Notes under the pieces: generated by a model
Database searches by the model: none
The model's input: the letters and a program-made list of their open reading frames with translations, nothing else
Told to the model about the DNA's origin: nothing
Program-made: the position numbers and the translations under genes
Shown here: one piece after another, positions 4,731 to 64,000 of the stretch
How the letters are laid out: the number at the start of each line of letters is the position of its first letter
How positions within the stretch are numbered: position 1 is the first letter of the stretch
NCBI GenBank assembly: GCA_965178125.1
Contig: OZ237735.1
Span: 868,001-932,000, forward strand
Direction: 5' to 3'
Origin: Bilabrum cf. latius
Taxonomy: Eukaryota
Length of the DNA stretch: 64,000 bases

Positions 4731-5582
4731 TCAAGATTGCAGTCCTCGCTATGCAGTGATACAGTGCACATCTATCCAGGGAATCCGTGATTCCTCCGAG
4801 GCAATCCCCAGTTCGCGCACCGCTGCCTCTGTTGACTCTGCGTCGGCAGTCGAGGGGAGTCGCAGGGACGGAGAGCAGCTGCTCAGGCATCGGGCAGCAT
4901 GCAAAGGCGAAATGCCGGCGTCGAATGCTCGCTATCGAAATTTTCGGTGCATCATGGGAGAAAATCCGCGTTTCGCCAGGCCGTTCCCGAGGCTCCCGTA
5001 GAGGGCATCCAAAAACTTGGTGGGCTCCAGCGCGAGCTCCGAGTCTCCTGTATCGCTGTCCAGCTGGGGGTGAATTGCCCCGACAGAAAATGAATCTGAG
5101 TCAGGTGGGAGCCTTGCCTGCAGCAGGCAAACGCTGCCCACTTCCTAATCCACTGCACCAGCTAAAGTCTCTGTGAGCATGTCGCTATAGTGCGCAGGTT
5201 GTAGCAACCTGAACGCCTGGGACACCACAGCAACATGATAGGGCTACCCGGTAGTTGATTCCCGCAAGTCTCGCAATAGCTGCTCTGCGGAGCATGAAAG
5301 CGTATCACCCACTGACGTGCATTCCACCGAATCACCAATTTCTCGCTTGATTGCCCAATGTAGCGTTCCTGATCCGGGTCCTACTGTGATTACACGCGGA
5401 AGCCCCCCTTGGGAAACTATCCCATTGTTTTGTCCTGGAAGCAGGGCAAACCTACGCAGCATAGCTCGAACCGGGCTTGCCCCCCATTCGATCTGAACAG
5501 TAGTCGAGGTGCTCGTCGATTTCGATCTGATTAGCCGCCGCGTCACGGATTGACAAGAATGTGATCTAAAACGGCCAATCAT
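4731..5582 (-). CDS. class I SAM-dependent methyltransferase-like protein, 283 aa with TAG read as sense; possible mitochondrial presequence
   Basis: ORFs 5244..5582 and 4932..5141 are in frame. TAG at 5244, 5145, 4932, 4749; ends TGA 4731-4733. Motif I-like VITVGPGSGTL, then SAE, then YHVAVVSQAFRLL (like FDLVxVAQAFHW) just after the first TAG, then GSVCLL. N-terminus is Arg/Ser/Thr-rich and lacks acidic residues. Confidence 0.6.
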
Positions 5583-5775
5583 GAGCTGAAATGAGACGTG
5601 ATCACTGCAGGTGGTCGCCTAAGGGAATAACTTTGCTGCGGCAGAATGTAGGGTGATGTTATCGGTATCGTTTTAGCTCCGGATTTTCTGTACCCAACTG
5701 TTCCAAAATGTTTGCAACGGCAATACTATCCATCTGTGAAGGTCGTGTCAATTATTTCTTTGCCAAGCAGTCGAC
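5583..5775. promoter_or_regulatory. short divergent intergenic region, probable bidirectional promoter
   Basis: 193 bp between the head-to-head ATGs at 5582 (-) and 5776 (+), more AT-rich than the flanking CDS. No specific element identified. Confidence 0.35.
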
Positions 5776-7868: not shown

Positions 7869-7888
7869 TGCATGCATGCATGCATGCA
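7869..7888. repeat. (TGCA)5 palindromic microsatellite in the convergent 3' intergenic region
   Basis: tgcatgcatgcatgcatgca read directly; lies in the AT-rich 187 bp between the SulP stop (7788) and the giant-gene stop (7976). Confidence 0.85.
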
Positions 7889-7975
7889 AAAATTGCAGTG
7901 CATTGCCTTGTGCCCACTTCTGCCTGGAACAAGGCCAAGCCGCACTCCTTAGTGAAGCACCCGTCTACTTGCTCT

Positions 7976-10900
7976 TTAGGTGTGTGCAGCGCCCTCAATC
8001 GCAATGACTTTCCACTGGTAGTCGCTGTTGACTTCAACGGTCCCTCCCAGAGCCATCGCTTGAACGTAAACATCACCATTGGCCAACGCGTGGGTCTAGC
8101 CAAACACGATGCCACCACCACTCGAATCGTACCGAGCTGAGGTTGCGGCTGCCGGGGCTTCCGCTAGCGTGAGCAGAATGATGGTAGCATCAGATGTCGT
8201 GAACGAAGTGCCATCCCACGAGATCGTGAGGCCGATCATCGCCATCTCGCCGTCTCGCACCTCCACCGTCGCGTCCGGGATTGCATCCCCTGTGGCGTAC
8301 TTGGTGACACCATAGTACGATGTGCCCACCTTGTGGAGTGAAACCATTTTACTCCCTCCAACGACCAGGTCGATGTGCCCACCGCTGGCTTCCACAGAGA
8401 CATCGTCTCCCTCGACGGAGACATCTCCAGTTGTGGTGATTTGAACACCACCTGATCCGCTTGTTATGTAGTGCGCCCCCGTCCCAGAGATACTGCTTCT
8501 AATATCCCCGCTTGCCTGTATGCTCACATCCCCGCCTGCTGCCTGCACGAGCACGTCGTTGTTGCTCCCAGTCGACTTGAGCACCGCGTGGCCGCCAGTG
8601 GCCAGGGCACTGACCGTTCCGCTGGTCGACTCGAGCAGAACATCGCTAGCTCTCAGTACGAGCTCCGTATCAGCCACGACGCTAACGCTTCCAAAAGAAG
8701 CGCGAGCTATCACCGACCCAGCTGCGCTCTAGATCAGCGCATCATCCGTTGCAAGCAATCTGAGGTCGTCAGTCGACCGGATCGTAGCAGTCGTCTCAGC
8801 TTTGATATCGACAGTGCCGCCCGTAGACACCATGTTTAAGCCGCCCGGTGATTCAAGGTGCATTCGGTTGGTCCCGCCGGCAGCAACAATGCTGACATGA
8901 CCCGCGGCAGCCTACAAGTCGATATCACCTCCTGAAGCTGCCAACCGCAAATCATCAGATGCTGCAAGCGCGATCTTACTGCTCGCCACTATCGACGTAT
9001 CACCAGCCGACTGAAGAACTATCCTCTTGGATGCACCAGGTGCCGAAAGCTCTACGTTCCCTTCAGACGATTGCACAGTCATGTCTCCCTCCGAGTCGAG
9101 ACTCATCTCTAGAGAAGTGCCCACGCTGGAATCAACTGCCCGAAGAGCGATGCCAGAGACAGGGTCGACGTCAAGAGCAACAGATCCGTCCCCTTGCGAG
9201 ATTTCAACGGATCCTGCAGAGGCCGAGCTAGCGGCCGAAGCGCCTTGTATACGAACAGTTCCACCCGAATTCCCTGCACCATTTCCAGAGCCGCCAATTA
9301 GACTGACGGAACCCCCGTTCCCAGACGAAGCTGCCGGACTGGACCGAAGAAGTAGGCCGGACCCACCACCACTAGATACCGTGACCGACGAACCCGACTG
9401 CAGAGAAACGATACCTGCAGATTCTACCGCAAACGTTGACGTAGTATCAACTGTAACCGCGCCAGACGCATCGATGTCCAGCGCGTCGCTCACCATACTC
9501 ACCATGCCGTCCGACACAAGGAACATGTCCTTGTTGTTGTCCGTCAGCAGGCTCATGTCTCCACTGGTGGCCTTCAGCGCCATGCCACTGGCGCCCACCA
9601 TGGCCACGGTGCTGTCCCCATCCAGCGTCACCTCGCCAGACGCATCGATGTCCAGCGCGTCGCTCACCATACTCACCATGCCGTCCGACACAAGGAACAT
9701 GTCCTTGTTATTGCCCGTCAGCAGGCTCATGTCTCCACTGGTGGCCTTCAGCGCCATGCCACTGGCGCCCACCATGGCCACGGTGCTGCCCCCATCCAGC
9801 GTCACCTCGCCAGACGCATCGATGTCCAGCGCCGCCGAGCTCAGGTCCATTTCGCCCGTGCTGGTCACGGCCACAGTGCTGTCCCCATCCAGCGTCACCT
9901 CGCCAGACGCATCGATGTCCAGCGCGTCGCTCACCATACTCACCATGCCGTCCGACACAAGGAACATGTCCTTGTTGTTGTCCGTCAGCAGGCTCATGTC
10001 TCCACTGGTGGCCTTCAGCGCCATGCCACTGGCGCCCACCATGGCCACAGTGCTGCCCCCATCCAGCGTCACCGTGCCAGACGCCTTTTGGTATAGACCA
10101 CTTGATGACATGATGGAGATTGATCCGGCAGCAGTACCGGTCCCAGTTGATAGAATTATGGCTCCTGATGCGGTAGTTCCACTTCCCGTCTGAATGTTTA
10201 TGTTCCCGCTGGCCCCGCTGCTTGCAGTTCCGGTTGCAAGTGAGACTGAGCCAGTTGGGCCTAGTGTGGACGCACCCGTTGACACTGAGACCGCACCTGA
10301 CGTAGCCGCCGGTCCAAGTGCCTGATGCGTCAAAATTGCGATTCCACCGCTTGTTCCAGTACTCCCAGATCTACCGCTGATGACCTAAACAGCCCCACCA
10401 TTTACTGCGGATGCCGTAGCAGCTCCAGCGTTAATCTCGATATTGGCGCCTACACCAGCTCCTGATGTGCCTGCAGCTAAAAGAACCTTGCCTGCTGCAC
10501 CCCCAGTCGTCGATCCAGTCATCAATGTGACCTGTCCAGACGTGCCCGACCCTGCAAGCCCGCTGCCCACTGTCACGCTCCCGCTCAGACCTGCCGTGGA
10601 CTTGCCAGTTACAACCGACACCGTGCCCGACGCTCCGTCAGACCCCACGCCATCCGCCGACCGCACCGTCACCAGCCCGCTCGTGGCCTCGCTGGCGCCC
10701 ACGCCAGATGCCACGGACACCAGCCCGCCCGTGCTGGACGTGTCCGTCGACTCACCGCCGAACACGTACACCGACCCGCCCACGCCCGATGACGCCTTCG
10801 AAGACGTCACTGACACAGACCCAGACGCGCCCAGCGAGGACTCGCCGGCCGACAGCACCAGCCATCCCACAGACCCGGACCCCACGTTCCCGGACTCCAC

Positions 10901-13900
10901 CAACACATGACCGCTGCTGCCCACGTGCGCCGCGCCGCTACGCAGCACCAGCCCGCCCGACGGGCCGCCGGAGCTCACGCCCGATCCCACCGTCACCGAC
11001 CCAGACCCGGAGCTTGACGCAGACCCGGACTCCAGACTCACAGACCCAGACGACCCCTTCACGCCAGACCCAGACCCCACTGACACTGACCCAGACGTGC
11101 CCGACCCTGCAAGCCCGCTGCCCACTGTCACGCTCCCGCTCAGACCCGCCGTGGACTTGCCAGATACCACCGACACCGTGCCCGACGCTCCGTCAGACCC
11201 CACGCCATCCGCCGACCGCACCGTCACCAGCCCGCTCGTGGCCTCGCTGGCGCCCACGCCAGATGCCACGGACACCAGCCCGCCCGTGCTGGACGTGTCC
11301 GTCGACTCACCGCCGAACACGTACACCGACCCGCCCACGCCCGATGACGCCTTCGAAGACGTCACTGACACAGACCCAGACGCGCCCAGCGAGGACTCGC
11401 CGGCCGACAGCACCAGCCATCCCACAGACCCGGACCCCACGTTCCCGGACTCCACCAACACATGACCGCTGCTGCCCACGTGCGCCGCGCCGCTACGCAG
11501 CACCAGCCCGCCCGACGGGCCGCCGGAGCTCACGCCCGATCCCACCGTCACCGACCCAGACCCGGAGCTTGACGCAGACCCGGACTCCAGACTCACAGAC
11601 CCAGACGACCCCTTCACGCCAGACCCAGACCCCACTGACACTGACCCAGACGTGCCCGACCCTGCAAGCCCGCTGCCCACTGTCACGCTCCCGCTCAGAC
11701 CCGCCGTGGACTTGCCAGATACAACCGACACCGTGCCCGACGCTCCGTCAGACCCCACGCCATCCGCCGACCGCACCGTCACCAGCCCGCTCGTGGCCTC
11801 GCTGGCGCCCACGCCAGATGCCACGGACACCAGCCCGCCCGTGCTGGACGTGTCCGTCGACTCACCGCCGAACACGTACACCGACCCGCCCACGCCCGAT
11901 GACGCCTTCGAAGACGTCACTGACACAGATCCAGACGCGCCCAGCGAGGACTCGCCGGCCGACAGCACCAGCCATCCCACAGACCCGGACCCCACGTTCC
12001 CGGACTCCACCAACACATGACCGCTGCTGCCCACGTGCGCCGCGCCGCTACGCAGCACCAGCCCGCCCGACGGGCCGCCGGAGCTCACGCCCGATCCCAC
12101 CGTCACCGACCCAGACCCGGAGCTTGACGCAGACCCGGACTCCAGACTCACAGACCCAGACGACCCCTTCACGCCAGACCCAGACCCCACTGACACTGAC
12201 CCAGACGTGCCCGACCCTGCAAGCCCGCTGCCCACTGTCACGCTCCCGCTCAGACCCGCCGTGGACTTGCCAGATACCACCGACACCGTGCCCGACGCTC
12301 CGTCAGACCCCACGCCATCCGCCGACCGCACCGTCACCAGCCCGCTCGTGGCCTCGCTGGCGCCCACGCCAGATGCCACGGACACCAGCCCGCCCGTGCT
12401 GGACGTGTCCGCCGACTCACCGCCGAACACGTACACCGACCCGCCCACGCCCGATGACGCCTTCGAAGACGTCACTGACACAGACCCAGACGCGCCCAGC
12501 GAGGACTCGCCGGCCGACAGCACCAGCCATCCCACAGACCCGGACCCCACGTTCCCGGACTCCACCAACACATGACCGCTGCTGCCCACGTGCGCCGCGC
12601 CGCTACGCAGCACCAGCCCGCCCGACGGGCCGCCGGAGCTCACGCCCGATCCCACCGTCACCGACCCAGACCCGGAGCTTGACGCAGACCCGGACTCCAG
12701 ACTCACAGACCCAGACGACCCCTTCACGCCAGACCCAGACCCCACTGACACTGACCCAGACGTGCCCGACCCTGCAAGCCCGCTGCCCACTGTCACGCTC
12801 CCGCTCAGACCCGCCGTGGACTTGCCAGATACAACCGACACCGTGCCCGACGCTCCGTCAGACCCCACGCCATCCGCCGACCGCACCGTCACCAGCCCGC
12901 TCGTGGCCTCGCTGGCGCCCACGCCAGATGCCACGGACACCAGCCCGCCCGTGCTGGACGTGTCCGTCGACTCACCGCCGAACACGTACACCGACCCGCC
13001 CACGCCCGATGACGCCTTCGAAGACGTCACTGACACAGATCCAGACGCGCCCAGCGAGGACTCGCCGGCCGACAGCACCAGCCATCCCACAGACCCGGAC
13101 CCCACGTTCCCGGACTCCACCAACACATGACCGCTGCTGCCCACGTGCGCCGCGCCGCTACGCAGCACCAGCCCGCCCGACGGGCCGCCGGAGCTCACGC
13201 CCGATCCCACCGTCACCGACCCAGACCCGGAGCTTGACGCAGACCCGGACTCCAGACTCACAGACCCAGACGACCCCTTCACGCCAGACCCAGACCCCAC
13301 TGACACTGACCCGGACTCGCCCACCGTCGCAGACCCAGACCCCACTGACACTGACCCAGACGTGCCCGACCCTGCAAGCCCGCTGCCCACTGTCACGCTC
13401 CCGCTCAGACCTGCCGTGGACTTGCCAGTTACCACCGACACCGTGCCCGACGCTCCGTCAGACCCCACGCCATCCGCCGACCGCACCGTCACCAGCCCGC
13501 TCGTGGCCTCGCTGGCGCCCACGCCAGATGCCACGGACACCAGCCCGCCCGTGCTGGACGTGTCCGTCGACTCACCGCCGAACACGTACACCGACCCGCC
13601 CACGCCCGATGACGCCTTCGAAGACGTCACTGACACAGACCCAGACGCGCCCAGCGAGGACTCGCCGGCCGACAGCACCAGCCATCCCACAGACCCGGAC
13701 CCCACGTTCCCGGACTCCACCAACACATGACCGCTGCTGCCCACGTGCGCCGCGCCGCTACGCAGCACCAGCCCGCCCGACGGGCCGCCGGAGCTCACGC
13801 CCGATCCCACCGTCACCGACCCAGACCCGGAGCTTGACGCAGACCCGGACTCCAGACTCACAGACCCAGACGACCCCTTCACGCCAGACCCAGACCCCAC

Positions 13901-16900
13901 TGACACTGACCCAGACGTGCCCGACCCTGCAAGCCCGCTGCCCACTGTCACGCTCCCGCTCAGACCCGCCGTGGACTTGCCAGATACCACCGACACCGTG
14001 CCCGACGCTCCGTCAGACCCCACGCCATCCGCCGACCGCACCGTCACCAGCCCGCTCGTGGCCTCGCTGGCGCCCACGCCAGATGCCACGGACACCAGCC
14101 CGCCCGTGCTGGACGTGTCCGTCGACTCACCGCCGAACACGTACACCGACCCGCCCACGCCCGATGACGCCTTCGAAGACGTCACTGACACAGACCCAGA
14201 CGCGCCCAGCGAGGACTCGCCGGCCGACAGCACCAGCCATCCCACAGACCCGGACCCCACGTTCCCGGACTCCACCAACACATGACCGCTGCTGCCCACA
14301 TGCGCCGCGCCGCTACGCAGCACCAGCCCGCCCGACGGGCCGCCGGAGCTCACGCCCGATCCCACCGTCACCGACCCAGACCCGGAGCTTGACGCAGACC
14401 CGGACTCCAGACTCACAGACCCAGACGACCCCTTCACGCCAGACCCAGATGACACAGACACTGACCCGGACTCGCCCACCGTCGCAGACCCAGACCCCAC
14501 TGACACTGACCCAGACGTGCCCGAACCTGCAAGCCCGCTGCCCACTGTCACGCTTCCGCTCAGACCCGCCGTGGACTTGCCAGATACCACCGACACCGTG
14601 CCCGACGCTCCGGCAGACCCCACGCCATCCGCCGACCGCACCGTCACCAGCCCGCTCGTGGCCACGCTGGCGCCCACGCCAGATGCCACGGACACCAGCC
14701 CGCCCGTGCTCGACGTGTCCGTCGACTCACCGCCGAACACGTACACCGACCCGCCCACGCCCGATGACGCCTTCGAAGACGTCACTGACACAGATCCAGA
14801 CGCGCCCAGCGAGGACTCGCCGGCCGACAGCACCAGCCATCCCACAGACCCGGACCCCACGTTCCCGGACTCCACCAACACATGACCGCTGCTGCCCACA
14901 TGCGCCGCGCCGCTACGCAGCACCAGCCCGCCCGACGGGCCGCCGGAGCTCACGCCCGATCCCACCGTCACCGACCCAGACCCGGAGCTTGACGCAGACC
15001 CGGACTCCAGACTCACAGACCCAGACGACCCCTTCACGCCAGACCCAGACCCCACTGACACTGACCCGGACTCGCCCACCGTCGCAGACCCAGACCCCAC
15101 TGACACTGACCCAGACGTGCCCGACCCTGCAAGCCCGCTGCCCACTGTCACGCTCCCGCTCAGACCCGCCGTGGACTTGCCAGATACCACCGACACCGTG
15201 CCCGACGCTCCGTCAGACCCCACGCCATCCGCCGACCGCACCGTCACCAGCCCGCTCGTGGCCTCGCTGGCGCCCACGCCAGATGCCACGGACACCAGCC
15301 CGCCCGTGCTGGACGTGTCCGTCGACTCACCGCCGAACACGTACACCGACCCGCCCACGCCCGATGACGCCTTCGAAGACGTCACTGACACAGACCCAGA
15401 CGCGCCCAGCGAGGACTCGCCGGCCGACAGCACCAGCCATCCCACAGACCCGGACCCCACGTTCCCGGACTCCACCAACACATGACCGCTGCTGCCCACG
15501 TGCGCCGCGCCGCTACGCAGCACCAGCCCGCCCGACGGGCCGCCGGAGCTCACGCCCGATCCCACCGTCACCGACCCAGACCCGGAGCTTGACGCAGACC
15601 CGGACTCCAGACTCACAGACCCAGACGACCCCTTCACGCCAGACCCAGACCCCACTGACACTGACCCAGACGTGCCCGACCCTGCAAGCCCGCTGCCCAC
15701 TGTCACGCTCCCGCTCAGACCCGCCGTGGACTTGCCAGTTACCACCGACACCGTGCCCGACGCTCCGTCAGACCCCACGCCATCCGCCGACCGCACCGTC
15801 ACCAGCCCGCTCGTGGCCTCGCTGGCGCCCACGCCAGATGCCACGGACACCAGCCCGCCCGTGCTCGACGTGTCCGTCGACTCACCGCCGAACACGTACA
15901 CCGACCCGCCCACGCCCGATGACGCCTTCGAAGACGTCACTGACACAGACCCAGACGCGCCCAGCGAGGACTCGCCGGCCGACAGCACCAGCCATCCCAC
16001 AGACCCGGACCCCACGTTCCCGGACTCCACCAACACATGACCGCTGCTGCCCACGTGCGCCGCGCCGCTACGCAGCACCAGCCCGCCCGACGGGCCGCCG
16101 GAGCTCACGCCCGATCCCACCGTCACCGACCCAGACCCGGAGCTTGACGCAGACCCGGACTCCAGACTCACAGACCCAGACGACCCCTTCACGCCAGACC
16201 CAGACCCCACTGACACTGACCCAGACGTGCCCGACCCTGCAAGCCCGCTGCCCACTGTCACGCTCCCGCTCAGACCCGCCGTGGACTTGCCAGTTACCAC
16301 CGACACCGTGCCCGACGCTCCGTCAGACCCCACGCCATCCGCCGACCGCACCGTCACCAGCCCGCTCGTGGCCTCGCTGGCGCCCACGCCAGATGCCACG
16401 GACACCAGCCCGCCCGTGCTCGACGTGTCCGTCGACTCACCGCCGAACACGTACACCGACCCGCCCACGCCCGATGACGCCTTCGAAGACGTCACTGACA
16501 CAGACCCAGACGCGCCCAGCGAGGACTCGCCGGCCGACAGCACCAGCCATCCCACAGACCCGGACCCCACGTTCCCGGACTCCACCAACACATGACCGCT
16601 GCTGCCCACGTGCGCCGCGCCGCTACGCAGCACCAGCCTGCCCGTCGGGCCGCCGGAGCTCACGCCCGATCCCACCGTCACCGACCCAGACCCGGAGCTT
16701 GACGCAGACCCGGACTCCAGACTCACAGACCCAGACGACCCCTCCACGCCAGACCCAGACCCCACTGACACTGACCCGGACTCGCCCACCGTCGCAGACC
16801 CAGACCCCACTGACACTGACCCAGACGTGCCCGACCCTGCAAGCCCGCTGCCCACTGTCACGCTCCCGCTCAGACCTGCCGTGGACTTGCCAGATACAAC

Positions 16901-19900
16901 CGACACCGTGCCCGACGCTCCGTCAGACCCCACGCCATCCGCCGACCGCACCGTCACCAGCCCGCTCGTGGCCTCGCTGGCGCCCACGCCAGATGCCACG
17001 GACACCAGCCCGCCCGTGCTGGACGTGTCCGTCGACTCACCGCCGAACACGTACACCGACCCGCCCACGCCCGATGACGCCTTCGAAGACGTCACTGACA
17101 CAGACCCAGACGCGCCCAGCGAGGACTCGCCGGCCGACAGCACCAGCCATCCCACAGACCCGGACCCCACGTTCCCGGACTCCACCAACACATGACCGCT
17201 GCTGCCCACGTGCGCCGCGCCGCTACGCAGCACCAGCCCGCCCGACGGGCCGCCGGAGCTCACGCCCGATCCCACCGTCACCGACCCAGACCCGGAGCTT
17301 GACGCAGACCCGGACTCCAGACTCACAGACCCAGACGACCCCTTCACGCCAGACCCAGACCCCACTGACACTGACCCAGACGTGCCCGACCCTGCAAGCC
17401 CGCTGCCCACTGTCACGCTTCCGCTCAGACCCGCCGTGGACTTGCCAGTTACAACCGACACCGTGCCCGACGCTCCGTCAGACCCCACGCCATCCGCCGA
17501 CCGCACCGTCACCAGCCCGCTCGTGGCCTCGCTGGCGCCCACGCCAGATGCCACGGACACCAGCCCGCCCGTGCTGGACGTGTCCGTCGACTCACCGCCG
17601 AACACGTACACCGACCCGCCCACGCCCGATGACGCCTTCGAAGACGTCACTGACACAGACCCAGACGCGCCCAGCGAGGACTCGCCGGCCGACAGCACCA
17701 GCCATCCCACAGACCCGGACCCCACGTTCCCGGACTCCACCAACACATGACCGCTGCTGCCCACGTGCGCCGCGCCGCTACGCAGCACCAGCCCGCCCGA
17801 CGGGCCGCCGGAGCTCACGCCCGATCCCACCGTCACCGACCCAGACCCGGAGCTTGACGCAGACCCGGACTCCAGACTCACAGACCCAGACGACCCCTTC
17901 ACGCCAGACCCAGATGACACAGACACTGACCCGGATGACACAGACACTGACCCGGACTCGCCCACCGTCGCAGACCCAGACCCCACTGACACTGACCCAG
18001 ACGTGCCCGACCCTGCAAGCCCGCTGCCCACTGTCACGCTCCCGCTCAGACCCGCCGTGGACTTGCCAGATACAACCGACACCGTGCCCGACGCTCCGTC
18101 AGACCCCACGCCATCCGCCGACCGCACCGTCACCAGCCCGCTCGTGGCCACGCTGGCGCCCACGCCAGATGCCACGGACACCAGCCCGCCCGTGCTCGAC
18201 GTGTCCGTCGACTCACCGCCGAACACGTACACCGACCCGCCCACGCCCGATGACGCCTTCGAAGACGTCACTGACACAGACCCAGACGCGCCCAGCGAGG
18301 ACTCGCCGGCCGACAGCACCAGCCATCCCACAGACCCGGACCCCACGTTCCCGGACTCCACCAACACATGACCGCTGCTGCCCACGTGCGCCGCGCCGCT
18401 ACGCAGCACCAGCCCGCCCGACGGGCCGCCGGAGCTCACGCCCGATCCCACCGTCACCGACCCAGACCCGGAGCTTGACGCAGACCCGGACTCCAGACTC
18501 ACAGACCCAGACGACCCCTTCACGCCAGACCCAGATGACACTGACACTGACCCAGACGTGCCCGACGTCGCAGACCCAGACCCCACTGACACTGACCCAG
18601 ACGTGCCCGACCCTGCAAGCCCGCTGCCCACTGTCACGCTCCCGCTCAGACCCGCCGTGGACTTGCCAGATACCACCGACACCGTGCCCGACGCTCCGGC
18701 AGACCCCACGCCATCCGCCGACCGCACCGTCACCAGCCCGCTCGTGGCCTCGCTGGCGCCCACGCCAGATGCCACGGACACCAGCCCGCCCGTGCTGGAC
18801 GTGTCCGTCGACTCACCGCCGAACACGTACACCGACCCGCCCACGCCCGATGACGCCTTCGAAGACGTCACTGACACAGACCCAGACGCGCCCAGCGAGG
18901 ACTCGCCGGCCGACAGCACCAGCCATCCCACAGACCCGGACCCCACGTTCCCGGACTCCACCAACACATGACCGCTGCTGCCCACGTGCGCCGCGCCGCT
19001 ACGCAGCACCAGCCCGCCCGACGGGCCGCCGGAGCTCACGCCCGATCCCACCGTCACCGACCCAGACCCGGAGCTTGACGCAGACCCGGACTCCAGACTC
19101 ACAGACCCAGACGACCCCTTCACGCCAGACCCAGACCCCACTGACACTGATCCAGACGTGCCCGACCCTGCAAGCCCGCTGCCCACTGTCACGCTCCCGC
19201 TCAGACCCGCCGTGGACTTGCCAGTTACCACCGACACCGTGCCCGACGCTCCGTCAGACCCCACGCCATCCGCCGACCGCACCGTCACCAGCCCGCTCGT
19301 GGCCTCGCTGGCGCCCACGCCAGATGCCACGGACACCAGCCCGCCCGTGCTGGACGTGTCCGTCGACTCACCGCCGAACACGTACACCGACCCGCCCACG
19401 CCCGATGACGCCTTCGAAGACGTCACTGACACAGACCCAGACGCGCCCAGCGAGGACTCGCCGGCCGACAGCACCAGCCATCCCACAGACCCGGACCCCA
19501 CGTTCCCGGACTCCACCAACACATGACCGCTGCTGCCCACGTGCGCCGCGCCGCTACGCAGCACCAGCCCGCCCGACGGGCCGCCGGAGCTCACGCCCGA
19601 TCCCACCGTCACCGACCCAGACCCGGAGCTTGACGCAGACCCGGACTCCAGACTCACAGACCCAGACGACCCCTTCACGCCAGACCCAGATGACACTGAC
19701 ACTGACCCAGACGTGCCCGACCCTGCAAGCCCGCTGCCCACTGTCACGCTCCCGCTCAGACCCGCCGTGGACTTGCCAGATACCACCGACACCGTGCCCG
19801 ACGCTCCGGCAGACCCCACGCCATCCGCCGACCGCACCGTCACCAGCCCGCTCGTGGCCTCGCTGGCGCCCACGCCAGATGCCACGGACACCAGCCCGCC

Positions 19901-52900: not shown

Positions 52901-55900
52901 AGACCCGGACTCGCCCACCGTCGCAGACCCAGACCCCACTGACACTGACCCAGACGTGCCCGACCCTGCAAGCCCGCTGCCCACTGTCACGCTCCCGCTC
53001 AGACCCGCCGTGGACTTGCCAGATACCACCGACACCGTGCCCGACGCTCCGGCAGACCCCACGCCATCCGCCGACCGCACCGTCACCAGCCCGCTCGTGG
53101 CCTCGCTGGCGCCCACGCCAGATGCCACGGACACCAGCCCGCCCGTGCTCGACGTGTCCGCCGACTCACCGCCGAACACGTACACCGACCCGCCCACGCC
53201 CGATGACGCCTTCGAAGACGTCACTGACACAGACCCAGACGCGCCCAGCGAGGACTCGCCGGCCGACAGCACCAGCCATCCCACAGACCCGGACCCCACG
53301 TTCCCGGACTCCACCAACACATGGCCGCTGCTGCCTACTGTGCTAGACCCGGTGCCAAGTCGCAAAGACCCAGACGACCCAGACCCAGCCGACCCAGTCA
53401 GCAGCGATCCAGACCCACTGCTGCCCACGTGTGCCGCGCCGCTACGCAGCACCAGCCCGCCCGACGGGCCGCCGGAGCTCACGCCCGATCCCACCGTCAC
53501 CGACCCAGACCCGGAGCTTGACGCAGACCCGGACTCCAGACTCACAGACCCAGACGACCCCTTCACGCCAGACCCAGATGACACAGACACAGACCCGGAC
53601 TCGCCCACCGTCGCAGACCCAGACCCCACTGACACTGACCCAGACGTGCCCGACCCTGCAAGCCCGCTGCCCACTGTCACGCTCCCGCTCAGACCCGCCG
53701 TGGACTTGCCAGATACCACCGACACCGTGCCTGACGCTCCGGCAGACCCCACGCCATCCGCCGACCGCACCGTCACCAGCCCGCTCGTGGCCTCGCTGGC
53801 GCCCACGCCAGATGCCACGGACACCAGCCCGCCCGTGCTGGACGTGTCCGTCGACTCACCGCCGAACACGTACACCGACCCGCCCACGCCCGATGACGCC
53901 TTCGAAGACGTCACTGACACAGACCCAGACGCGCCCAGCGAGGACTCGCCGGCCGACAGCACCAGCCATCCCACAGACCCGGACCCCACGTTCCCGGACT
54001 CCACCAACACATGGCCGCTGCTGCCCACAACGCTAGACCCGGTGCCAAGTCGAAAAGAACCAGATGATCCAGACACAGCCGACCCAGTCAGCAACAATCC
54101 TGATCCACTGCTGCCCACGTGCGCCGCGCCGCTACGCAGCACCAGCCCGCCCGACGGGCCGCCGGAGCTCACGCCCGATCCCACCGTCACCGACCCAGAC
54201 CCGGAGCTTGACGCAGACCCGGACTCCAGACTCACAGACCCAGACGACCCCTTCACGCCAGACCCAGATGACACAGACACAGACCCGGACTCGCCCACCG
54301 TCGCAGACCCAGACCCCACTGACACTGACCCAGACGTGCCCGACCCTGCAAGCCCGCTGCCCACTGTCACGCTCCCGCTCAGACCCGCCGTGGACTTGCC
54401 AGATACCACCGACACCGTGCCCGACGCTCCGGCAGACCCCACGCCATCCGCCGACCGCACCGTCACCAGCCCGCTCGTGGCCTCGCTGGCGCCCACGCCA
54501 GATGCCACGGACACCAGCCCGCCCGTGCTGGTCGTGTCCGTCGACTCACCGCCGAACACGTACACCGACCCGCCCACGCCCGATGACGCCTTCGAAGACG
54601 TCACTGACACAGACCCAGACGCGCCCAGCGAGGACTCGCCGGCCGACAGCACCAGCCATCCCACAGACCCGGACCCCACGTTCCCGGACTCCACCAACAC
54701 ATGGCCGCTGCTGCCCACGTGCGCCGCGCCGCTACGCAGCACCAGCCCGCCCGACGGGCCGCCGGAGCTCACGCCCGATCCCACCGTCACCGACCCAGAC
54801 CCGGAGCTTGACGCAGACCCGGACTCCAGACTCACAGACCCAGACGACCCCTTCACGCCAGACCCAGATGACACAGACACAGACCCGGACTCGCCCACCG
54901 TCGCAGACCCAGACCCCACTGACACTGACCCAGACGTGCCCGACCCTGCAAGCCCGCTGCCCACTGTCACGCTCCCGCTCAGACCCGCCGTGGACTTGCC
55001 AGATACCACCGACACCGTGCCCGACGCTCCGTCAGACCCCACGCCATCCGCCGACCGCACCGTCACCAGCCCGCTCGTGGCCTCGCTGGCGCCCACGCCA
55101 GATGCCACGGACACCAGCCCGCCCGTGCTCGACGTGTCCGTCGACTCACCGCCGAACACGTACACCGACCCGCCCACGCCCGATGACGCCTTCGAAGACG
55201 TCACTGACACAGACCCAGACGCGCCCAGCGAGGACTCGCCGGCCGACAGCACCAGCCATCCCACAGACCCGGACCCCACGTTCCCGGACTCCACCAACAC
55301 ATGGCCGCTGCTGCCCACGTGCGCCGCGCCGCTACGCAGCACCAGCCCGCCCGACGGGCCGCCGGAGCTCACGCCCGATCCCACCGTCACCGACCCAGAC
55401 CCGGAGCTTGACGCAGACCCGGACTCCAGACTCACAGACCCAGACGACCCCTTCACGCCAGACCCAGATGACACAGACACAGACCCGGACTCGCCCACCG
55501 TCGCAGACCCAGACCCCACTGACACTGACCCAGACGTGCCCGACCCTGCAAGCCCGCTGCCCACTGTCACGCTCCCGCTCAGACCCGCCGTGGACTTGCC
55601 AGATACCACCGACACCGTGCCCGACGCTCCGGCAGACCTCACGCCATCCGCCGACCGCACCGTCACCAGCCCGCTCGTGGCCTCGCTGGCGCCCACGCCA
55701 GATGCCACGGACACCAGCCCGCCCGTGCTGGACGTGTCCGTCGACTCACCGCCGAACACGTACACCGACCCGCCCACGCCCGATGACGCCTTCGAAGACG
55801 TCACTGACACAGACCCAGACGCGCCCAGCGAGGACTCGCCGGCCGACAGCACCAGCCATCCCACAGACCCGGACCCCACGTTCCCGGACTCCACCAACAC

Positions 55901-58900
55901 ATGGCCGCTGCTGCCCACATGCGCCGCGCCGCTACGCAGCACCAGCCCGCCCGACGGGCCGCCGGAGCTCACGCCCGATCCCACCGTCACCGACCCAGAC
56001 CCGGAGCTTGACGCAGACCCGGACTCCAGACTCACAGACCCAGACGACCCCTTCACGCCAGACCCAGATGACACAGACACAGACCCGGACTCGCCCACCG
56101 TCGCAGACCCAGACCCCACTGACACTGACCCAGACGTGCCCGACCCTACAAGCCCGCTGCCCACTGTCACGCTCCCGCTCAGACCCGCCATGGACTTGCC
56201 AGTTACCACCGACACCGTGCCCGACGCTCCGGCAGACCCCACGCCATCCGCCGACCGCACCGTCACCAGCCCGCTCGTGGCCTCGCTGGCGCCCACGCCA
56301 GATGCCACGGACACCAGCCCGCCCGTGCTCGACGTGTCCGCCGACTCACCGCCGAACACGTACACCGACCCGCCCACGCCCGATGACGCCTTCGAAGACG
56401 TCACTGACACAGACCCAGACGCGCCCAGCGAGGACTCGCCGGCCGACAGCACCAGCCATCCCACAGACCCGGACCCCACGTTCCCGGACTCCACCAACAC
56501 ATGACCGCTGCTGCCCACGTGCGCCGCGCCGCTACGCAGCACCAGCCCGCCCGACGGGCCGCCGGAGCTCACGCCCGATCCCACCGTCACCGACCCAGAC
56601 CCGGAGCTTGACGCAGACCCGGACTCCAGACTCACAGACCCAGACGACCCCTTCACGCCAGACCCAGATGACACAGACACAGACCCGGACTCGCCCACCG
56701 TCGCAGACCCAGACCCCACTGACACTGACCCAGACGTGCCCGACCCTGCAAGCCCGCTGCCCACTGTCACGCTCCCGCTCAGACCCGCCGTGGACTTGCC
56801 AGATACCACCGACACCGTGCCCGACGCTCCGGCAGACCCCACGCCATCCGCCGACCGCACCGTCACCAGCCCGCTCGTGGCCTCGCTGGCGCCCACGCCA
56901 GATGCCACGGACACCAGCCCGCCCGTGCTGGACGTGTCCGTCGACTCACCGCCGAACACGTACACCGACCCGCCCACGCCCGATGACGCCTTCGAAGACG
57001 TCACTGACACAGACCCAGACGCGCCCAGCGAGGACTCGCCGGCCGACAGCACCAGCCATCCCACAGACCCGGACCCCACGTTCCCGGACTCCACCAACAC
57101 ATGACCGCTGCTGCCCACGTGCGCCGCGCCGCTACGCAGCACCAGCCCGCCCGACGGGCCGCCGGAGCTCACGCCCGATCCCACCGTCACCGACCCAGAC
57201 CCGGAGCTTGACGCAGACCCGGACTCCAGACTCACAGACCCAGACGACCCCTTCACGCCAGACCCAGACCCCACTGACACTGACCCAGACGTGCCCGACC
57301 CTGCAAGCCCGCTGCCCACTGTCACGCTCCCGCTCAGACCCGCCGTGGACTTGCCAGATACCACCGACACCGTGCCCGACGCTCCGGCAGACCCCACGCC
57401 ATCCGCCGACCGCACCGTCACCAGCCCGCTCGTGGCCTCGCTGGCGCCCACGCCAGATGCCACGGACACCAGCCCGCCCGTGCTGGACGTGTCCGTCGAC
57501 TCACCGCCAAACACGTACACCGACCCGCCCACGCCCGATGACGCCTTCGAAGACGTCACTGACACAGACCCAGACGCGCCCAGCGAGGACTCGCCGGCCG
57601 ACAGCACCAGCCATCCCACAGACCCGGACCCCACGTTCCCGGACTCCACCAACACATGGCCGCTGCTGCCCACGTGCGCCGCGCCGCTACGCAGCACCAG
57701 CCCGCCCGACGGGCCGCCGGAGCTCACGCCCGATCCCACCGTCACCGACCCAGACCCGGAGCTTGACGCAGACCCGGACTCCAGACTCACAGACCCAGAC
57801 GACCCCTTCACGCCAGACCCAGATGACACAGACACAGACCCGGACTCGCCCACCGTCGCAGACCCAGACCCCACTGACACTGACCCAGACGTGCCCGACC
57901 CTGCAAGCCCGCTGCCCACTGTCACGCTCCCGCTCAGACCCGCCGTGGACTTGCCAGATACCACCGACACCGTGCCCGACGCTCCGGCAGACCCCACGCC
58001 ATCCGCCGACCGCACCGTCACCAGCCCGCTCGTGGCCTCGCTGGCGCCCACGCCAGATGCCACGGACACCAGCCCGCCCGTGCTGGACGTGTCCGTCGAC
58101 TCACCGCCGAACACGTACACCGACCCGCCCACGCCCGATGACGCCTTCGAAGACGTCACTGACACAGACCCAGACGCGCCCAGCGAGGACTCGCCGGCCG
58201 ACAGCACCAGCCATCCCACAGACCCGGACCCCACGTTCCCGGACTCCACCAACACATGGCCGCTGCTGCCCACGTGCGCCGCGCCGCTACGCAGCACCAG
58301 CCCGCCCGACGGGCCGCCGGAGCTCACGCCCGATCCCACCGTCACCGACCCAGACCCGGAGCTTGACGCAGACCCGGACTCCAGACTCACAGACCCAGAC
58401 GACCCCTTCACGCCAGACCCAGATGACACAGACACAGACCCGGACTCGCCCACCGTCGCAGACCCAGACCCCACTGACACTGACCCAGACGTGCCCGACC
58501 CTGCAAGCCCGCTGCCCACTGTCACGCTCCCGCTCAGACCCGCCGTGGACTTGCCAGATACCACCGACACCGTGCCCGACGCTCCGGCAGACCCCACGCC
58601 ATCCGCCGACCGCACCGTCACCAGCCCGCTCGTGGCCTCGCTGGCGCCCACGCCAGATGCCACGGACACCAGCCCGCCCGTGCTCGACGTGTCCGTCGAC
58701 TCACCGCCGAACACGTACACCGACCCGCCCACGCCCGATGACGCCTTCGAAGACGTCACTGACACAGACCCAGACGCGCCCAGCGAGGACTCGCCGGCCG
58801 ACAGCACCAGCCATCCCACAGACCCGGACCCCACGTTCCCGGACTCCACCAACACATGGCCGCTGCTGCCCACGTGCGCCGCGCCGCTACGCAGCACCAG

Positions 58901-61900
58901 CCCGCCCGACGGGCCGCCGGAGCTCACGCCCGATCCCACCGTCACCGACCCAGACCCGGAGCTTGACGCAGACCCGGACTCCAGACTCACAGACCCAGAC
59001 GACCCCTTCACGCCAGACCCAGATGACACAGACACAGACCCGGACTCGCCCACCGTCGCAGACCCAGACCCCACTGACACTGACCCAGACGTGCCCGACC
59101 CTGCAAGCCCGCTGCCCACTGTCACGCTCCCGCTCAGACCCGCCGTGGACTTGCCAGATACCACCGACACCGTGCCCGACGCTCCGTCAGACCCCACGCC
59201 ATCCGCCGACCGCACCGTCACCAGCCCGCTCGTGGCCTCGCTGGCGCCCACGCCAGATGCCACGGACACCAGCCCGCCCGTGCTGGACGTGTCCGCCGAC
59301 TCACCGCCGAACACGTACACCGACCCGCCCACGCCCGATGACGCCTTCGAAGACGTCACTGACACAGACCCAGACGCGCCCAGCGAGGACTCGCCGGCCG
59401 ACAGCACCAGCCATCCCACAGACCCGGACCCCACGTTCCCGGACTCCACCAACACATGACCGCTGCTGCCCACGTGCGCCGCGCCACTACGCAGCACCAG
59501 CCCGCCCGACGGGCCGCCGGAGCTCACGCCCGATCCCACCGTCACCGACCCAGACCCGGAGCTTGACGCAGACCCGGACTCCAGACTCACAGACCCAGAC
59601 GACCCCTTCACGCCAGACCCAGATGACACAGACACAGACCCGGACTCGCCCACCGTCGCAGACCCAGACCCCACTGACACTGACCCAGACGTGCCCGACC
59701 CTGCAAGCCCGCTGCCCACTGTCACGCTCCCGCTCAGACCCGCCGTGGACTTGCCAGATACCACCGACACCGTGCCCGACGCTCCGGCAGACCCCACGCC
59801 ATCCGCCGACCGCACCGTCACCAGCCCGCTCGTGGCCTCGCTGGCGCCCACGCCAGATGCCACGGACACCAGCCCGCCCGTGCTCGACGTGTCCGTCGAC
59901 TCACCGCCGAACACGTACACCGACCCGCCCACGCCCGATGACGCCTTCGAAGACGTCACTGACACAGACCCAGACGCGCCCAGCGAGGACTCGCCGGCCG
60001 ACAGCACCAGCCATCCCACAGACCCGGACCCCACGTTCCCGGACTCCACCAACACATGGCCGCTGCTGCCCACATGCGCCGCGCCGCTACGCAGCACCAG
60101 CCCGCCCGACGGGCCGCCGGAGCTCACGCCCGATCCCACCGTCACCGACCCAGACCCGGAGCTTGACGCAGACCCGGACTCCAGACTCACAGACCCAGAC
60201 GACCCCTTCACGCCAGACCCAGATGACACAGACACAGACCCGGACTCGCCCACCGTCGCAGACCCAGACCCCACTGACACTGACCCAGACGTGCCCGACC
60301 CTGCAAGCCCGCTGCCCACTGTCACGCTCCCGCTCAGACCCGCCGTGGACTTGCCAGATACCACCGACACCGTGCCCGACGCTCCGTCAGACCCCACGCC
60401 ATCCGCCGACCGCACCGTCACCAGCCCGCTCGTGGCCTCGCTGGCGCCCACGCCAGATGCCACGGACACCAGCCCGCCCGTGCTGGACGTGTCCGTCGAC
60501 TCACCGCCGAACACGTACACCGACCCGCCCACGCCCGATGACGCCTTCGAAGACGTCACTGACACAGACCCAGACGCGCCCAGCGAGGACTCGCCGGCCG
60601 ACAGCACCAGCCATCCCACAGACCCGGACCCCACGTTCCCGGACTCCACCAACACATGACCGCTGCTGCCCACGTGTGCCGCGCCGCTACGCAGCACCAG
60701 CCCGCCCGACGGGCCGCCGGAGCTCACGCCCGATCCCACCGTCACCGACCCAGACCCGGAGCTTGACGCAGACCCGGACTCCAGACTCACAGACCCAGAC
60801 GACCCCTTCACGCCAGACCCAGATGACACAGACACAGACCCGGACTCGCCCACCGTCGCAGACCCAGACCCCACTGACACTGACCCAGACGTGCCCGACC
60901 CTGCAAGCCCGCTGCCCACTGTCACGCTCCCGCTCAGACCCGCCGTGGACTTGCCAGATACCACCGACACCGTGCCCGACGCTCCAGCAGACCCCACGCC
61001 ATCCGCCGACCGCACCGTCACCAGCCCGCTCGTGGCCTCGCTGGCGCCCACGCCAGATGCCACAGACACCAGCCCGCCCGTGCTCGACGTGTCCGTCGAC
61101 TCACCGCCGAACACGTACACCGACCCGCCCACGCCCGATGACGCCTTCGAAGACGTCACTGACACAGACCCAGACGCGCCCAGCGAGGACTCGCCGGCCG
61201 ACAGCACCAGCCATCCCACAGACCCGGACCCCACGTTCCCGGACTCCACCAACACATGACCGCTGCTGCCCACGTGCGCCGCGCCGCTACGCAGCACCAG
61301 CCCGCCCGACGGGCCGCCGGAGCTCACGCCCGATCCCACCGTCACCGACCCAGACCCGGAGCTTGACGCAGACCCGGACTCCAGACTCACAGACCCAGAC
61401 GACCCCTTCACGCCAGACCCAGATGACACAGACACAGACCCGGACTCGCCCACCGTCGCAGACCCAGACCCCACTGACACTGACCCAGACGTGCCCGACC
61501 CTGCAAGCCCGCTGCCCACTGTCACGCTCCCGCTCAGACCCGCCGTGGACTTGCCAGATACCACCGACACCGTGCCCGACGCTCCGTCAGACCCCACGCC
61601 ATCCGCCGACCGCACCGTCACCAGCCCGCTCGTGGCCTCGCTGGCGCCCACGCCAGATGCCACGGACACCAGCCCGCCCGTGCTCGACGTGTCCGTCGAC
61701 TCACCGCCGAACACGTACACCGACCCGCCCACGCCCGATGACGCCTTCGAAGACGTCACTGACACAGACCCAGACGCGCCCAGCGAGGACTCGCCGGCCG
61801 ACAGCACCAGCCATCCCACAGACCCGGACCCCACGTTCCCGGACTCCACCAACACATGGCCGCTGCTGCCCACGTGCGCCGCGCCGCTACGCAGCACCAG

Positions 61901-64000
61901 CCCGCCCGACGGGCCGCCGGAGCTCACGCCCGATCCCACCGTCACCGACCCAGACCCGGAGCTTGACGCAGACCCGGACTCCAGACTCACAGACCCAGAC
62001 GACCCCTTCACGCCAGACCCAGATGACACAGACACAGACCCGGACTCGCCCACCGTCGCAGACCCAGACCCCACTGACACTGACCCAGACGTGCCCGACC
62101 CTGCAAGCCCGCTGCCCACTGTCACGCTCCCGCTCAGACCCGCCGTGGACTTGCCAGATACCACCGACACCGTGCCCGACGCTCCAGCAGACCCCACGCC
62201 ATCCGCCGACCGCACCGTCACCAGCCCGCTCGTGGCCTCGCTGGCGCCCACGCCAGATGCCACGGACACCAGCCCGCCCGTGCTGGACGTGTCCGTCGAC
62301 TCACCGCCGAACACGTACACCGACCCGCCCACGCCCGATGACGCCTTCGAAGACGTCACTGACACAGACCCAGACGCGCCCAGCGAGGACTCGCCGGCCG
62401 ACAGCACCAGCCATCCCACAGACCCGGACCCCACGTTCCCGGACTCCACCAACACATGGCCGCTGCTGCCCACGTGCGCCGCGCCGCTACGCAGCACCAG
62501 CCCGCCCGACGGGCCGCCGGAGCTCACGCCCGATCCCACCGTCACCGACCCAGACCCGGAGCTTGACGCAGACCCGGACTCCAGACTCACAGACCCAGAC
62601 GACCCCTTCACGCCAGACCCAGATGACACAGACACAGACCCGGACTCGCCCACCGTCGCAGACCCAGACCCCACTGACACTGACCCAGACGTGCCCGACC
62701 CTGCAAGCCCGCTGCCCACTGTCACGCTCCCGCTCAGACCCGCCGTGGACTTGCCAGATACCACCGACACCGTGCCCGACGCTCCGGCAGACCCCACGCC
62801 ATCCGCCGACCGCACCGTCACCAGCCCGCTCGTGGCCTCGCTGGCGCCCACGCCAGATGCCACGGACACCAGCCCGCCCGTGCTCGACGTGTCCGTCGAC
62901 TCACCGCCGAACACGTACACCGACCCGCCCACGCCCGATGACGCCTTCGAAGACGTCACTGACACAGACCCAGACGCGCCCAGCGAGGACTCGCCGGCCG
63001 ACAGCACCAGCCATCCCACAGACCCGGACCCCACGTTCCCGGACTCCACCAACACATGACCGCTGCTGCCCACGTGCGCCGCGCCGCTACGCAGCACCAG
63101 CCCGCCCGACGGGCCGCCGGAGCTCACGCCCGATCCCACCGTCACCGACCCAGACCCGGAGCTTGACGCAGACCCGGACTCCAGACTCACAGACCCAGAC
63201 GACCCCTTCACGCCAGACCCAGATGACACAGACACAGACCCGGACTCGCCCACCGTCGCAGACCCAGACCCCACTGACACTGACCCAGACGTGCCCGACC
63301 CTGCAAGCCCGCTGCCCACTGTCACGCTCCCGCTCAGACCCGCCGTGGACTTGCCAGATACCACCGACACCGTGCCCGACGCTCCGGCAGACCCCACGCC
63401 ATCCGCCGACCGCACCGTCACCAGCCCGCTCGTGGCCTCGCTGGCGCCCACGCCAGATGCCACGGACACCAGCCCGCCCGTGCTCGACGTGTCCGTCGAC
63501 TCACCGCCGAACACGTACACCGACCCGCCCACGCCCGATGACGCCTTCGAAGACGTCACTGACACAGACCCAGACGCGCCCAGCGAGGACTCGCCGGCCG
63601 ACAGCACCAGCCATCCCACAGACCCGGACCCCACGTTCCCGGACTCCACCAACACATGGCCGCTGCTGCCCACGTGCGCCGCGCCGCTACGCAGCACCAG
63701 CCCGCCCGACGGGCCGCCGGAGCTCACGCCCGATCCCACCGTCACCGACCCAGACCCGGAGCTTGACGCAGACCCGGACTCCAGACTCACAGACCCAGAC
63801 GACCCCTTCACGCCAGACCCAGATGACACAGACACAGACCCGGACTCGCCCACCGTCGCAGACCCAGACCCCACTGACACTGACCCAGACGTGCCCGACC
63901 CTGCAAGCCCGCTGCCCACTGTCACGCTCCCGCTCAGACCCGCCGTGGACTTGCCAGATACCACCGACACCGTGCCCGACGCTCCGGCAGACCCCACGCC
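7976..64000 (-). CDS. giant Gly/Ser/Val-rich tandem-repeat protein, at least 18,674 aa, 5'-partial; putative beta-solenoid fibre
   Basis: ORFs 32831..63997, 32291..32818, 10385..31978, 8912..10333 and 8096..8713 share one frame. The gaps translate cleanly and contain only TAG (32831, 32291, 32030, 10385, 8912, 8729, 8096). First TAA is 7976-7978 (...YQWKVIAIEGAAHT). The frame is still open at the window edge. Confidence 0.88.
9461..10085 (-). repeat. coding tandem repeat: three 174-bp (58-aa) units plus one 93-bp (31-aa) unit
   Basis: Anchor gccagacgc recurs at 9461, 9635, 9809, 9902, 10076. Unit GxVTLDGxSTVAMVGASGMALKATSGDMSLLTDNNKDMFLVSDGMVSMVSDALDIDAS. Confidence 0.92.
10076..10540 (-). 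repeat. dispersed ~465-bp intragenic duplication, copy 1 (copy 2 at 31721-32185)
   Basis: Colinear with 31721-32185 at an offset of 21,645 bp; both encode GKVLLAAG...NGGAV*VISGRS...THQALGPAATSGAV... Confidence 0.92.
10536..31695 (-). repeat. coding macrosatellite array A: 37 units, periods 555 bp (21x), 600 bp (14x), 621 bp (1x)
   Basis: Counted from the recurring gtgcccgaccctgcaagc anchor, 10542 to 31218; the 36 intervals sum to 20,676 bp. Units encode 185/200/207 aa. Confidence 0.95.
31721..32185 (-). repeat. dispersed ~465-bp intragenic duplication, copy 2, inside the ~1.4-kb non-array linker (31696-33080)
   Basis: Aligns to 10076-10540 without gaps by eye, including the shared in-frame TAG (32030 vs 10385). 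Confidence 0.92.
33081..64000 (-). repeat. coding macrosatellite array B: 51 full units plus a partial one, mostly 600 bp, also 555 (3x), 645 (1x), 690 (3x); continues beyond the window
   Basis: Same unit as array A; anchors from 33111 to 63891. 90-bp inserts near 33490, 39490, 53335 and 54025. Confidence 0.95.

Follow-up and report, generated by a model that had tools for sequence, protein, structure and literature searches.

What does the minus strand encode in a 64,000-nucleotide stretch of Bilabrum cf. latius DNA (assembly GCA_965178125.1, contig OZ237735.1, forward-strand positions 868,001 to 932,000; this whole stretch is hereafter the window, numbered from its first letter)? Most of that strand is occupied by two arrays of near-identical repeats, and under the standard genetic code it falls apart into several open reading frames (ORFs). 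We find that positions 7976..64000 belong to one real protein-coding gene in which TAG is a sense codon; this giant gene continues past the edge of the window. The reading that we favour as a whole, with moderate confidence, is that this is a single real gene of a eukaryotic microbe that decodes TAG as glutamine, and that its product is mostly a periodic beta-strand repeat, probably forming a trimeric beta-helical fibre.

A single frame across the arrays

With bacterial or standard stops (translation table 11), the minus strand is cut into eight stop-to-stop pieces, of which those of at least 300 aa are:

32831..64000, minus strand: table 11 piece, 5'-open, 10,389 aa
10385..31978, minus strand: table 11 piece, 7,197 aa
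8912..10333, minus strand: table 11 piece, 473 aa

When TAG is read as a residue, a single minus-strand frame spans 7976..64000 (18,674 codons) and is still open at its 5' end where the window stops. By direct count, this frame contains seven TAG codons, no TGA, and one TAA, with which it terminates:

32831-3, 32291-3, 32030-2, 10385-7, 8912-4, 8729-31 and 8096-8, minus strand: in-frame TAGs of the giant gene
7976..7978, minus strand: TAA stop of the giant frame

All seven TAGs are confined to two stretches that lie outside the arrays, and there the openness of the giant frame exceeds chance. Between 7979 and 10522 (848 codons) the giant frame has no TAA or TGA, against 8–36 in the other five frames; between 31690 and 33090 (466 codons) it again has none, against 7–27 in the others. 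The part of the product encoded in the window has a mass of 1.645 MDa (with TAG as glutamine), hence a lower bound, and a rough scan over the final 850 aa revealed no hydrophobic C-terminal tail. A sequence-only reading of this DNA had proposed a continuous frame once TAG is sense, a mass near 1.6 MDa, an N-terminus lying outside the window, a C-terminus without a hydrophobic tail, and the splitting of the gene by standard-code annotation; each of these proposals is borne out by the counts above.

On the opposite strand, long ORFs at 10708..31698 and 33559..63999 (table 11, up to 6,996 aa) mirror the array and are interrupted in the non-repeat parts. A gene caller could wrongly favour these plus-strand mirror ORFs.

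TAG as a sense codon in the host

The genes beside the giant frame are the following:

197..2350, plus strand: SET-domain gene, 717 aa, five in-frame TAGs
2595..4448, minus strand: gene without family assignment, six in-frame TAGs
4731..5582, minus strand: gene without family assignment, 283 aa, four in-frame TAGs, TGA stop
5776..7788, plus strand: SulP/STAS anion transporter, convergent neighbour of the giant gene, 670 aa, five in-frame TAGs, TAA stop

Every one of these genes carries in-frame TAGs, without an in-frame TGA or TAA; with the giant frame included, genes of the window end in TAA in four cases and in TGA in one. The SulP gene served as the reference for the genetic code and for locating related loci. 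A metagenome scan with its protein returned four loci, two of which (L001 and L002, assigned to a related organism) encode SulP proteins 82% identical to that of the window; the other two (L003 and L004), with SulP identities of 58–61%, are too distant for use as reference loci. The genes at L001 and L002 also carry in-frame TAGs, and their stop is TGA in six of six cases and TAA in none. Stop preference differs markedly between these close relatives, being mostly TAA in the window and exclusively TGA at L001 and L002.

Each TAG in a window gene, or in an L001 or L002 orthologue, was paired with the aligned residue of the other organism. This gave 22 counted pairs, three further pairs being left out as products of a spurious alignment (an unassigned gene against L002 4492-5625, score 43). 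Glutamine is the most frequent partner (six pairs), followed by glutamate (four) and by lysine, glycine, and serine (two each), and in highly conserved contexts the partner is glutamine in three of three pairs. At SulP position 594, TAG pairs with glutamine, which is also the residue found in P0001, a protein 89% identical; at SulP position 125 it is the relative that has TAG, at a site with glutamine conservation of at least 90% across 24 homologues. At position 217 of the gene at 4731..5582, TAG aligns to glutamine in an otherwise identical 13-residue context. Additionally, protein family matches run through the codon: the Pfam STAS match of SulP continues across TAG 594, and the Pfam DUF2345 match of the giant gene continues across TAG 8912-4. 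Within the giant gene itself, the TAG contexts (hydrophobic residue, TAG, S/T/A, A/G, G) resemble those of its CAG and CAA codons, although glutamate occurs in them too.

TAG is therefore a sense codon in the host, best matched by glutamine, and TAA and TGA are both kept as stops. The earlier suggestion that TAG is sense in this DNA finds support in the in-frame TAGs of the neighbouring genes and in the orthologue pairs from L001 and L002. No tRNA genes were found in the 64-kb window.

Among the neighbours, the gene at 4731..5582 (minus strand) is a real gene, being 47% identical over 268 aa to L001 1303..2436 (minus strand). In the SET-domain protein (197..2350, plus strand), the Pfam match is confined to the C-terminal SET half, and the middle of the protein holds a long insert rich in Ala and Ser; its orthologue in L002 is 41% identical.

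Anatomy of the giant protein

A 9-residue anchor occurs 88 times in the giant protein and marks 88 repeat units. The spacing between anchors is 200 aa in 57 cases, 185 aa in 24, 230 aa in three, and 215 and 207 aa in one each, and a single gap of 631 aa corresponds to the middle linker. In the direction of translation, the protein is laid out as follows:

33080..64000, minus strand: array A, 51 units, mostly of 200 aa (also 185, 215, and 230), running off the window
31694..33079, minus strand: middle linker, ~462 aa, with degenerate Gly/Ser/Val/Ala sub-repeats of the array type
32831-3, 32291-3 and 32030-2, minus strand: in-frame TAGs of the middle linker
10535..31693, minus strand: array B, 37 units, mixed 185 and 200 aa, with an allele signature unlike that of array A
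7979..10534, minus strand: C-terminal region, as placed by the map of anchors and coordinates
10100..10534, minus strand: ~145 aa duplicating the second half of the linker, its TAG (10385-7) included, as shown by matching blocks between linker and C-terminal region
9464..10099, minus strand: 89-aa (267-bp) repeat in two to three copies, motif 'LDIDASGEVTLDG' (Tandem Repeats Finder period 267, 97% matches)
8774..9034, minus strand: best DUF2345 match (Pfam, E 5.6e-14)
7979..8347, minus strand: terminal 123-aa non-repeat domain, which holds TAG 8096-8

The second half of the linker (31694-32150) thus recurs at the end of array B (10100-10534) with its TAG retained, which suggests that the two-array layout arose by segmental duplication of an 'array plus linker' segment.

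The units are themselves built of a shorter repeat. Unit sizes (185–230 aa) differ by multiples of 15 aa, and each unit comprises about 13 copies of a 15-residue sub-repeat, ~1,200 in total, with a consensus of about G-S-S-G-S-V-S-V-x-S-G-S-x-x-x. Hydrophobicity is autocorrelated with the same period (peaks of 0.40, 0.41, and 0.30 for lags of 15, 30, and 45), and the protein contains 1,229 V/L-x-V/L strand cores, spaced by 15 residues (697), 16 (187), 17 (181), or 14 (94). Its composition is dominated by serine (28.8%), glycine (24.2%), and valine (15.9%), followed by alanine (7.7%) and threonine (6.2%), and it contains no cysteine.

Purifying selection acts on the repeat units, with non-synonymous change held down. 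At the DNA level, 49 different sequences occur among the 57 units of 200 aa, at the protein level only 21; mean pairwise DNA identity is 98.9% (range 97.2–100%). Among these units, 28 of the 49 variable sites are synonymous third positions in the frame of the gene; the same count gives 8–10 in four of the other frames and 25 in the antisense frame with the same wobble position. Variants recur as alleles in a non-periodic mosaic without long exact duplications, and arrays A and B differ systematically, both in their mix of unit lengths and in the allele at site 2. The array looks like the outcome of genuine concerted evolution rather than of copy-paste assembly, a likeness that does not in itself prove the copy number.

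In searches of the repeat unit and the linker, Pfam yielded only sub-threshold Kelch noise, and neither NCBIfam nor PHROGs gave a match; PDB sequences had no match to the repeat (sequence E up to 1; profile E up to 10). The ESM Atlas returned only unnamed clusters, with low recognition, for the repeat. A homologue search with two units recovered P0075, P0076, and P0077 only, at 30–35% identity that is possibly driven by composition; P0076 (939 aa) is built of similar 15–16-mers of the form SG-x-I/V-x-I/V-x-S/T-G. P0077 is a protein of 1,316 aa from Durusdinium trenchii, annotated as an alanyl-tRNA synthetase, of which the tail matches the Ser/Gly/Val repeat at 33%; this tail may stem from a fusion or an annotation error, or the match may be compositional.

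C-terminal region and its relatives

The last 803 aa of the giant protein match DUF2345 (PF10106) with 52.7 bits, against a Pfam cut-off of 30.7, over residues 452-538, and a second, weaker DUF2345 stretch lies closer to the C-terminus. DUF2345 is the C-terminal beta-helix of VgrG spikes. PHROGs gave a single weak baseplate match for the giant protein (E 0.004), NCBIfam had no match, and a search of the PDB by sequence with the 803 aa yielded nothing real.

A HMMER search, exhaustive over 1.84 billion representatives, recovered no more than 22 proteins with E at or below 1e-3. A Pfam scan took in 15 of these 22 relatives, and eight of the 15 pass the cut-off for DUF2345. Three pass that of Sarcoglycan_1, each together with DUF2345; the phage tail Collar domain is present in one (P0057), as is the Peptidase_S74 fibre chaperone in another (P0062). 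The profile of the relatives matches the needle part of VgrG (6sjl_A, 3.2e-7; 8gra_I, 1.8e-3). The 89-aa repeat of the C-terminal region resembles repeats in the tail-collar protein P0057, as well as in P0055 and P0061. Each module with detectable kinship to the giant protein is thus one of trimeric beta-helical fibres or spikes. The sequence-only reading had envisaged a fibrous, filament-like product of unknown family. The first part of this agrees with the 15-residue beta-strand periodicity and with a DUF2345 match above the Pfam cut-off; the second is true of the repeat body, for which Pfam, NCBIfam, PHROGs, and the PDB came back empty.

Two of the 22 are close. P0053 is 86% identical (query residues 565-763), and its extent is exactly that from one TAG of the window to another. 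The second, P0054, is the L001 counterpart of the giant gene and ends at a TAG of the L001 organism. Because the database ORFs of both P0053 and P0054 terminate exactly at TAG positions, such proteins are invisible in catalogues. The terminal 123-aa domain is conserved in P0053 and recognisable in L001. With P0054 as the query, the ESM Atlas returned nothing.

An orthologue beside SulP in a related organism

At L001, a Ser/Gly-rich ORF of 552 aa (5254..6912, minus strand, 5'-open) converges on SulP, as does the giant gene in the window. Its parts also follow the order seen in the window: Ser/Gly 15-mers, a duplicated segment, the beta-helix, and the terminal domain. Over the C-terminal region (7979-9800 in the window), the two proteins are only 28% identical (172 of 609 columns), whereas the adjacent SulP proteins are 82% identical. 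Given this difference, the giant gene is conserved in position and architecture while its sequence evolves fast, which would be in keeping with a surface protein, as is often seen for such proteins. Furthermore, one contig of 5,161 bases is listed both for P0053 and for a member of the SulP cluster.

Scans for related loci found none with the repeat unit (genome and viral contigs) or with P0053 (genome contigs), and thus no relative supplied the N-terminus.

Support for the assembled sequence

Runs from four studies cover 5700-10400, and contigs of four runs were compared with the window there. All four TAGs within 8096-10387 are covered by contigs from three studies (X1, X5, and X6). Contigs of X1 reach to 9489, those of X5 span 7833-9489, those of X6 span 7718-9316, and further contigs span 10044-10396. 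No differences from the window are listed in 7833-9316 and 10044-10396, apart from one letter in the X5 piece 10044-10400.

Among the runs covering 5700-10400, none is listed that is recorded as RNA. Contigs of X5 and X8, which come from different studies and for which an RNA origin is only guessed, begin at 5737, 39 nt before the ATG of SulP, and end or begin at 7829/7833, in the interval where SulP and the giant gene converge; one X1 contig passes through both 5737 and 7829-7833. The X5 and X8 contig ends are transcript-like and give a weak hint that they might be transcript ends. X8 has zero cover over the giant gene.

A predicted fibre and its alternatives

In the reading that we favour, the chain would form a long beta-helix, most likely a homotrimeric triple-stranded beta-helix of the kind seen in the VgrG/gp5 needle, the stalks of phage tail fibres, and the tower of the sarcoglycans. 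Trimerisation and registration would start from a nucleus made up of the conserved C-terminal beta-helix and the 123-aa end domain, and the two arrays would serve as a length-setting shaft of roughly 0.6–1.6 micrometres by geometry. General geometric constants, with no model behind them, put the part in the window at ~0.6 micrometres if the chain were a monomeric solenoid of 15 residues per coil; a triple-stranded beta-helix would reach ~1.1 micrometres and a triple beta-spiral ~1.6 micrometres. Fibre length would evolve by unequal crossing-over within the arrays. We predict a cell-surface or extracellular fibre, such as a hair or a filament for attachment or prey contact.

Several points weigh against this reading. 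The TAG pairs are few and 16 of the 22 are with residues other than glutamine, although most of these lie in poorly conserved stretches. The repeat body matches no entry in Pfam, NCBIfam, PHROGs, or the PDB, and the DUF2345 match covers less than 1% of the protein (fewer than 100 of 18,674 residues). AlphaFold2 models are of low confidence, both for two repeat units (single sequence; predicted local distance difference test score, pLDDT, 40.5) and for P0054 (10-row alignment; pLDDT 41.9, all-beta). The Ser and Gly content (28.8% and 24.2%) would also fit a monomeric solenoid, or a mucin-like chain that is flexible and glycosylated. The length of the big arrays rests on a single assembly, and the 267-bp repeat at 9.5–10.1 kb is already enough to break short-read contigs.

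These points bear on different alternatives. It is possible, if less probable than a trimeric fibre, that there is one giant gene whose product is a monomeric solenoid of ~15 residues per coil, or an extended, O-glycosylated mucin-like tether in which only the C-terminal module is folded. Composition, the lack of any family or PDB match for the repeat, and the low-confidence models all leave room for this, and turns of 15 residues are known among monomeric solenoids (spruce budworm antifreeze protein). Against it stand the strict alternating V-x-V core, which recurs every 14–17 residues through ~1,200 repeats and thus argues for regular beta structure rather than disorder, the restraint on non-synonymous variation among units, and the origin of the sole homologous modules (DUF2345, Sarcoglycan_1, and the relatives that bear Collar or S74) in trimeric fibres. 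We consider it unlikely that the gene is real but its assembly inflated or mis-joined, with fewer units, or with arrays A and B representing two alleles or paralogues concatenated by a long-read assembler via the duplicated linker segment. Units that are 97.2–100% identical in DNA invite such errors, the recurrence of the linker half with the same TAG at the end of array B could mark a false join, and the short-read contigs of X1, X5, and X6 break at repeats. Yet 49 of the 57 units of 200 aa are distinct in DNA, in a mosaic of recurrent alleles that is neither periodic nor marked by long exact duplications; the two arrays differ systematically in unit-length mix and in the site 2 allele; and the frame is maintained across all junctions.

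That TAG is a true stop, leaving several ORFs, a decayed pseudogene, or a non-coding satellite that is merely stop-free, we regard as highly improbable. Such an account could draw on the splitting of the frame under table 11, on a repeat that leaves several frames open on both strands, and on the lack of any run recorded as RNA among those covering 5700-10400. It is opposed by the in-frame TAGs of neighbouring genes that end in TAA or TGA, including TAGs in conserved parts of the transporter; by the TAG in the relative's SulP at a site where glutamine is at least 90% conserved; and by the absence of TAA and TGA from 1,314 non-repeat codons of the giant frame. The synonymous excess among unit variants, the DUF2345 match that runs over a TAG, and the ends of the P0053 and P0054 database ORFs exactly at TAGs speak against it as well.

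A bolder version of the fibre proposal goes further: that a micrometre-long homotrimeric triple-stranded beta-helix is encoded, over more than 56 kb and without introns, in one exon that is in effect a needle module of phage or type VI secretion system (T6SS) type amplified ~1,200-fold, possibly after acquisition from a virus or bacterium, and that the cell employs the product as a stiff hair on its surface or as a filament resembling a harpoon. This we hold to be doubtful; if true, no longer beta-helix would be known, and eukaryotic fibres would gain a new class, hidden by standard-code annotation. Should the trimeric fibre that we favour prove correct, the locus would encode a megadalton, cysteine-free beta-helical fibre whose only detectable kin are trimeric spike and fibre modules. 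It would then offer a concrete candidate where heterotrophic flagellates bear surface filaments that are still unexplained, as well as a natural test case for the folding and length evolution of very long beta-helices. More generally, standard-code gene calling fragments giant near-identical arrays in recoded genomes.

Comparison with known systems

UAG as glutamine, with UAA and UGA as stops, is the pattern of NCBI translation table 15. A known but rare nuclear code of this kind is that of Iotanema spirale, as described by Panek et al. 2017 (PMC5304391). The host code shares the pattern, in that TAG is sense and best matched by glutamine while TAA and TGA are both stops. Iotanema is a fornicate, whereas the kinship of the host SulP does not suggest one: it is closest to marine sequences, and its closest named relatives are from Cafeteria (54%) and Choanoeca (45–48%). 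A literature search on UAG/Gln codes in stramenopiles found no such case by title or abstract. With this code, a GC-rich lineage with a compact genome joins the few eukaryotes that have reassigned UAG alone.

VgrG needles are trimeric triple-stranded beta-helices. With VgrG and the phage gp5 needle, the giant protein shares DUF2345 above cut-off in its C-terminal part, and the profile of its relatives matches the needle of 6SJL and 8GRA; both proteins are all-beta with a short periodic repeat. Unlike VgrG, the giant protein shows no head of gp27-like or gp5 OB-fold type within its 18,674 aa in the window (no Pfam match to Phage_GPD or T6SS_Vgr in the repeat, the linker, or the final 803 aa, the true N-terminus lying past the window), and its host is a eukaryote. 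It is also ~20–30 times longer than any VgrG, and its main 15-residue repeat does not match DUF2345.

Trimeric fibres of phages and other viruses have the same general layout, a long periodic shaft followed by a small C-terminal domain. The weak relatives P0057 and P0062 combine Collar (PF07484) or Peptidase_S74 (PF13884) with SG-x-I/V-x-I/V-x-S/T-G 15-mers or 'LDIDASG' repeats. By Pfam, the Collar and Peptidase_S74 modules are absent from the giant protein, which is two orders of magnitude larger than phage tail fibres. Sarcoglycans form a trimeric beta-helix (PMC12404760). The tower of beta-, gamma-, and delta-sarcoglycan offers a eukaryotic precedent for an extracellular trimeric beta-helix, and three relatives of the giant protein pass Sarcoglycan_1; the giant protein itself has no match to Sarcoglycan_1 (PF04790) and, unlike sarcoglycans, shows no transmembrane anchor in the part present.

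In size and plan, the giant protein can be set beside known giant repetitive proteins, such as the bacterial 1.5-MDa ice-binding adhesin of Marinomonas and the eukaryotic titin and PKZILLA. These likewise reach megadalton size, and their near-identical tandem units, numbering from dozens to hundreds, serve as an extender that sets length. They use Ig-like or enzymatic modules, whereas the unit here is a cysteine-free Ser/Gly/Val 15-mer that needs a non-standard code to be read. A literature search on giant genes or beta-solenoids in protists found neither the gene nor the lineage described in any title or abstract. Giant repetitive fibre proteins and a UAG = Gln code are thus each of a known kind. 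What is new, relative to the libraries and literature searched, is their combination in a eukaryotic host: a cysteine-free 15-residue Ser/Gly/Val family in ~1,200 copies, carried by an intronless frame and ending in a beta-helix of the spike type.

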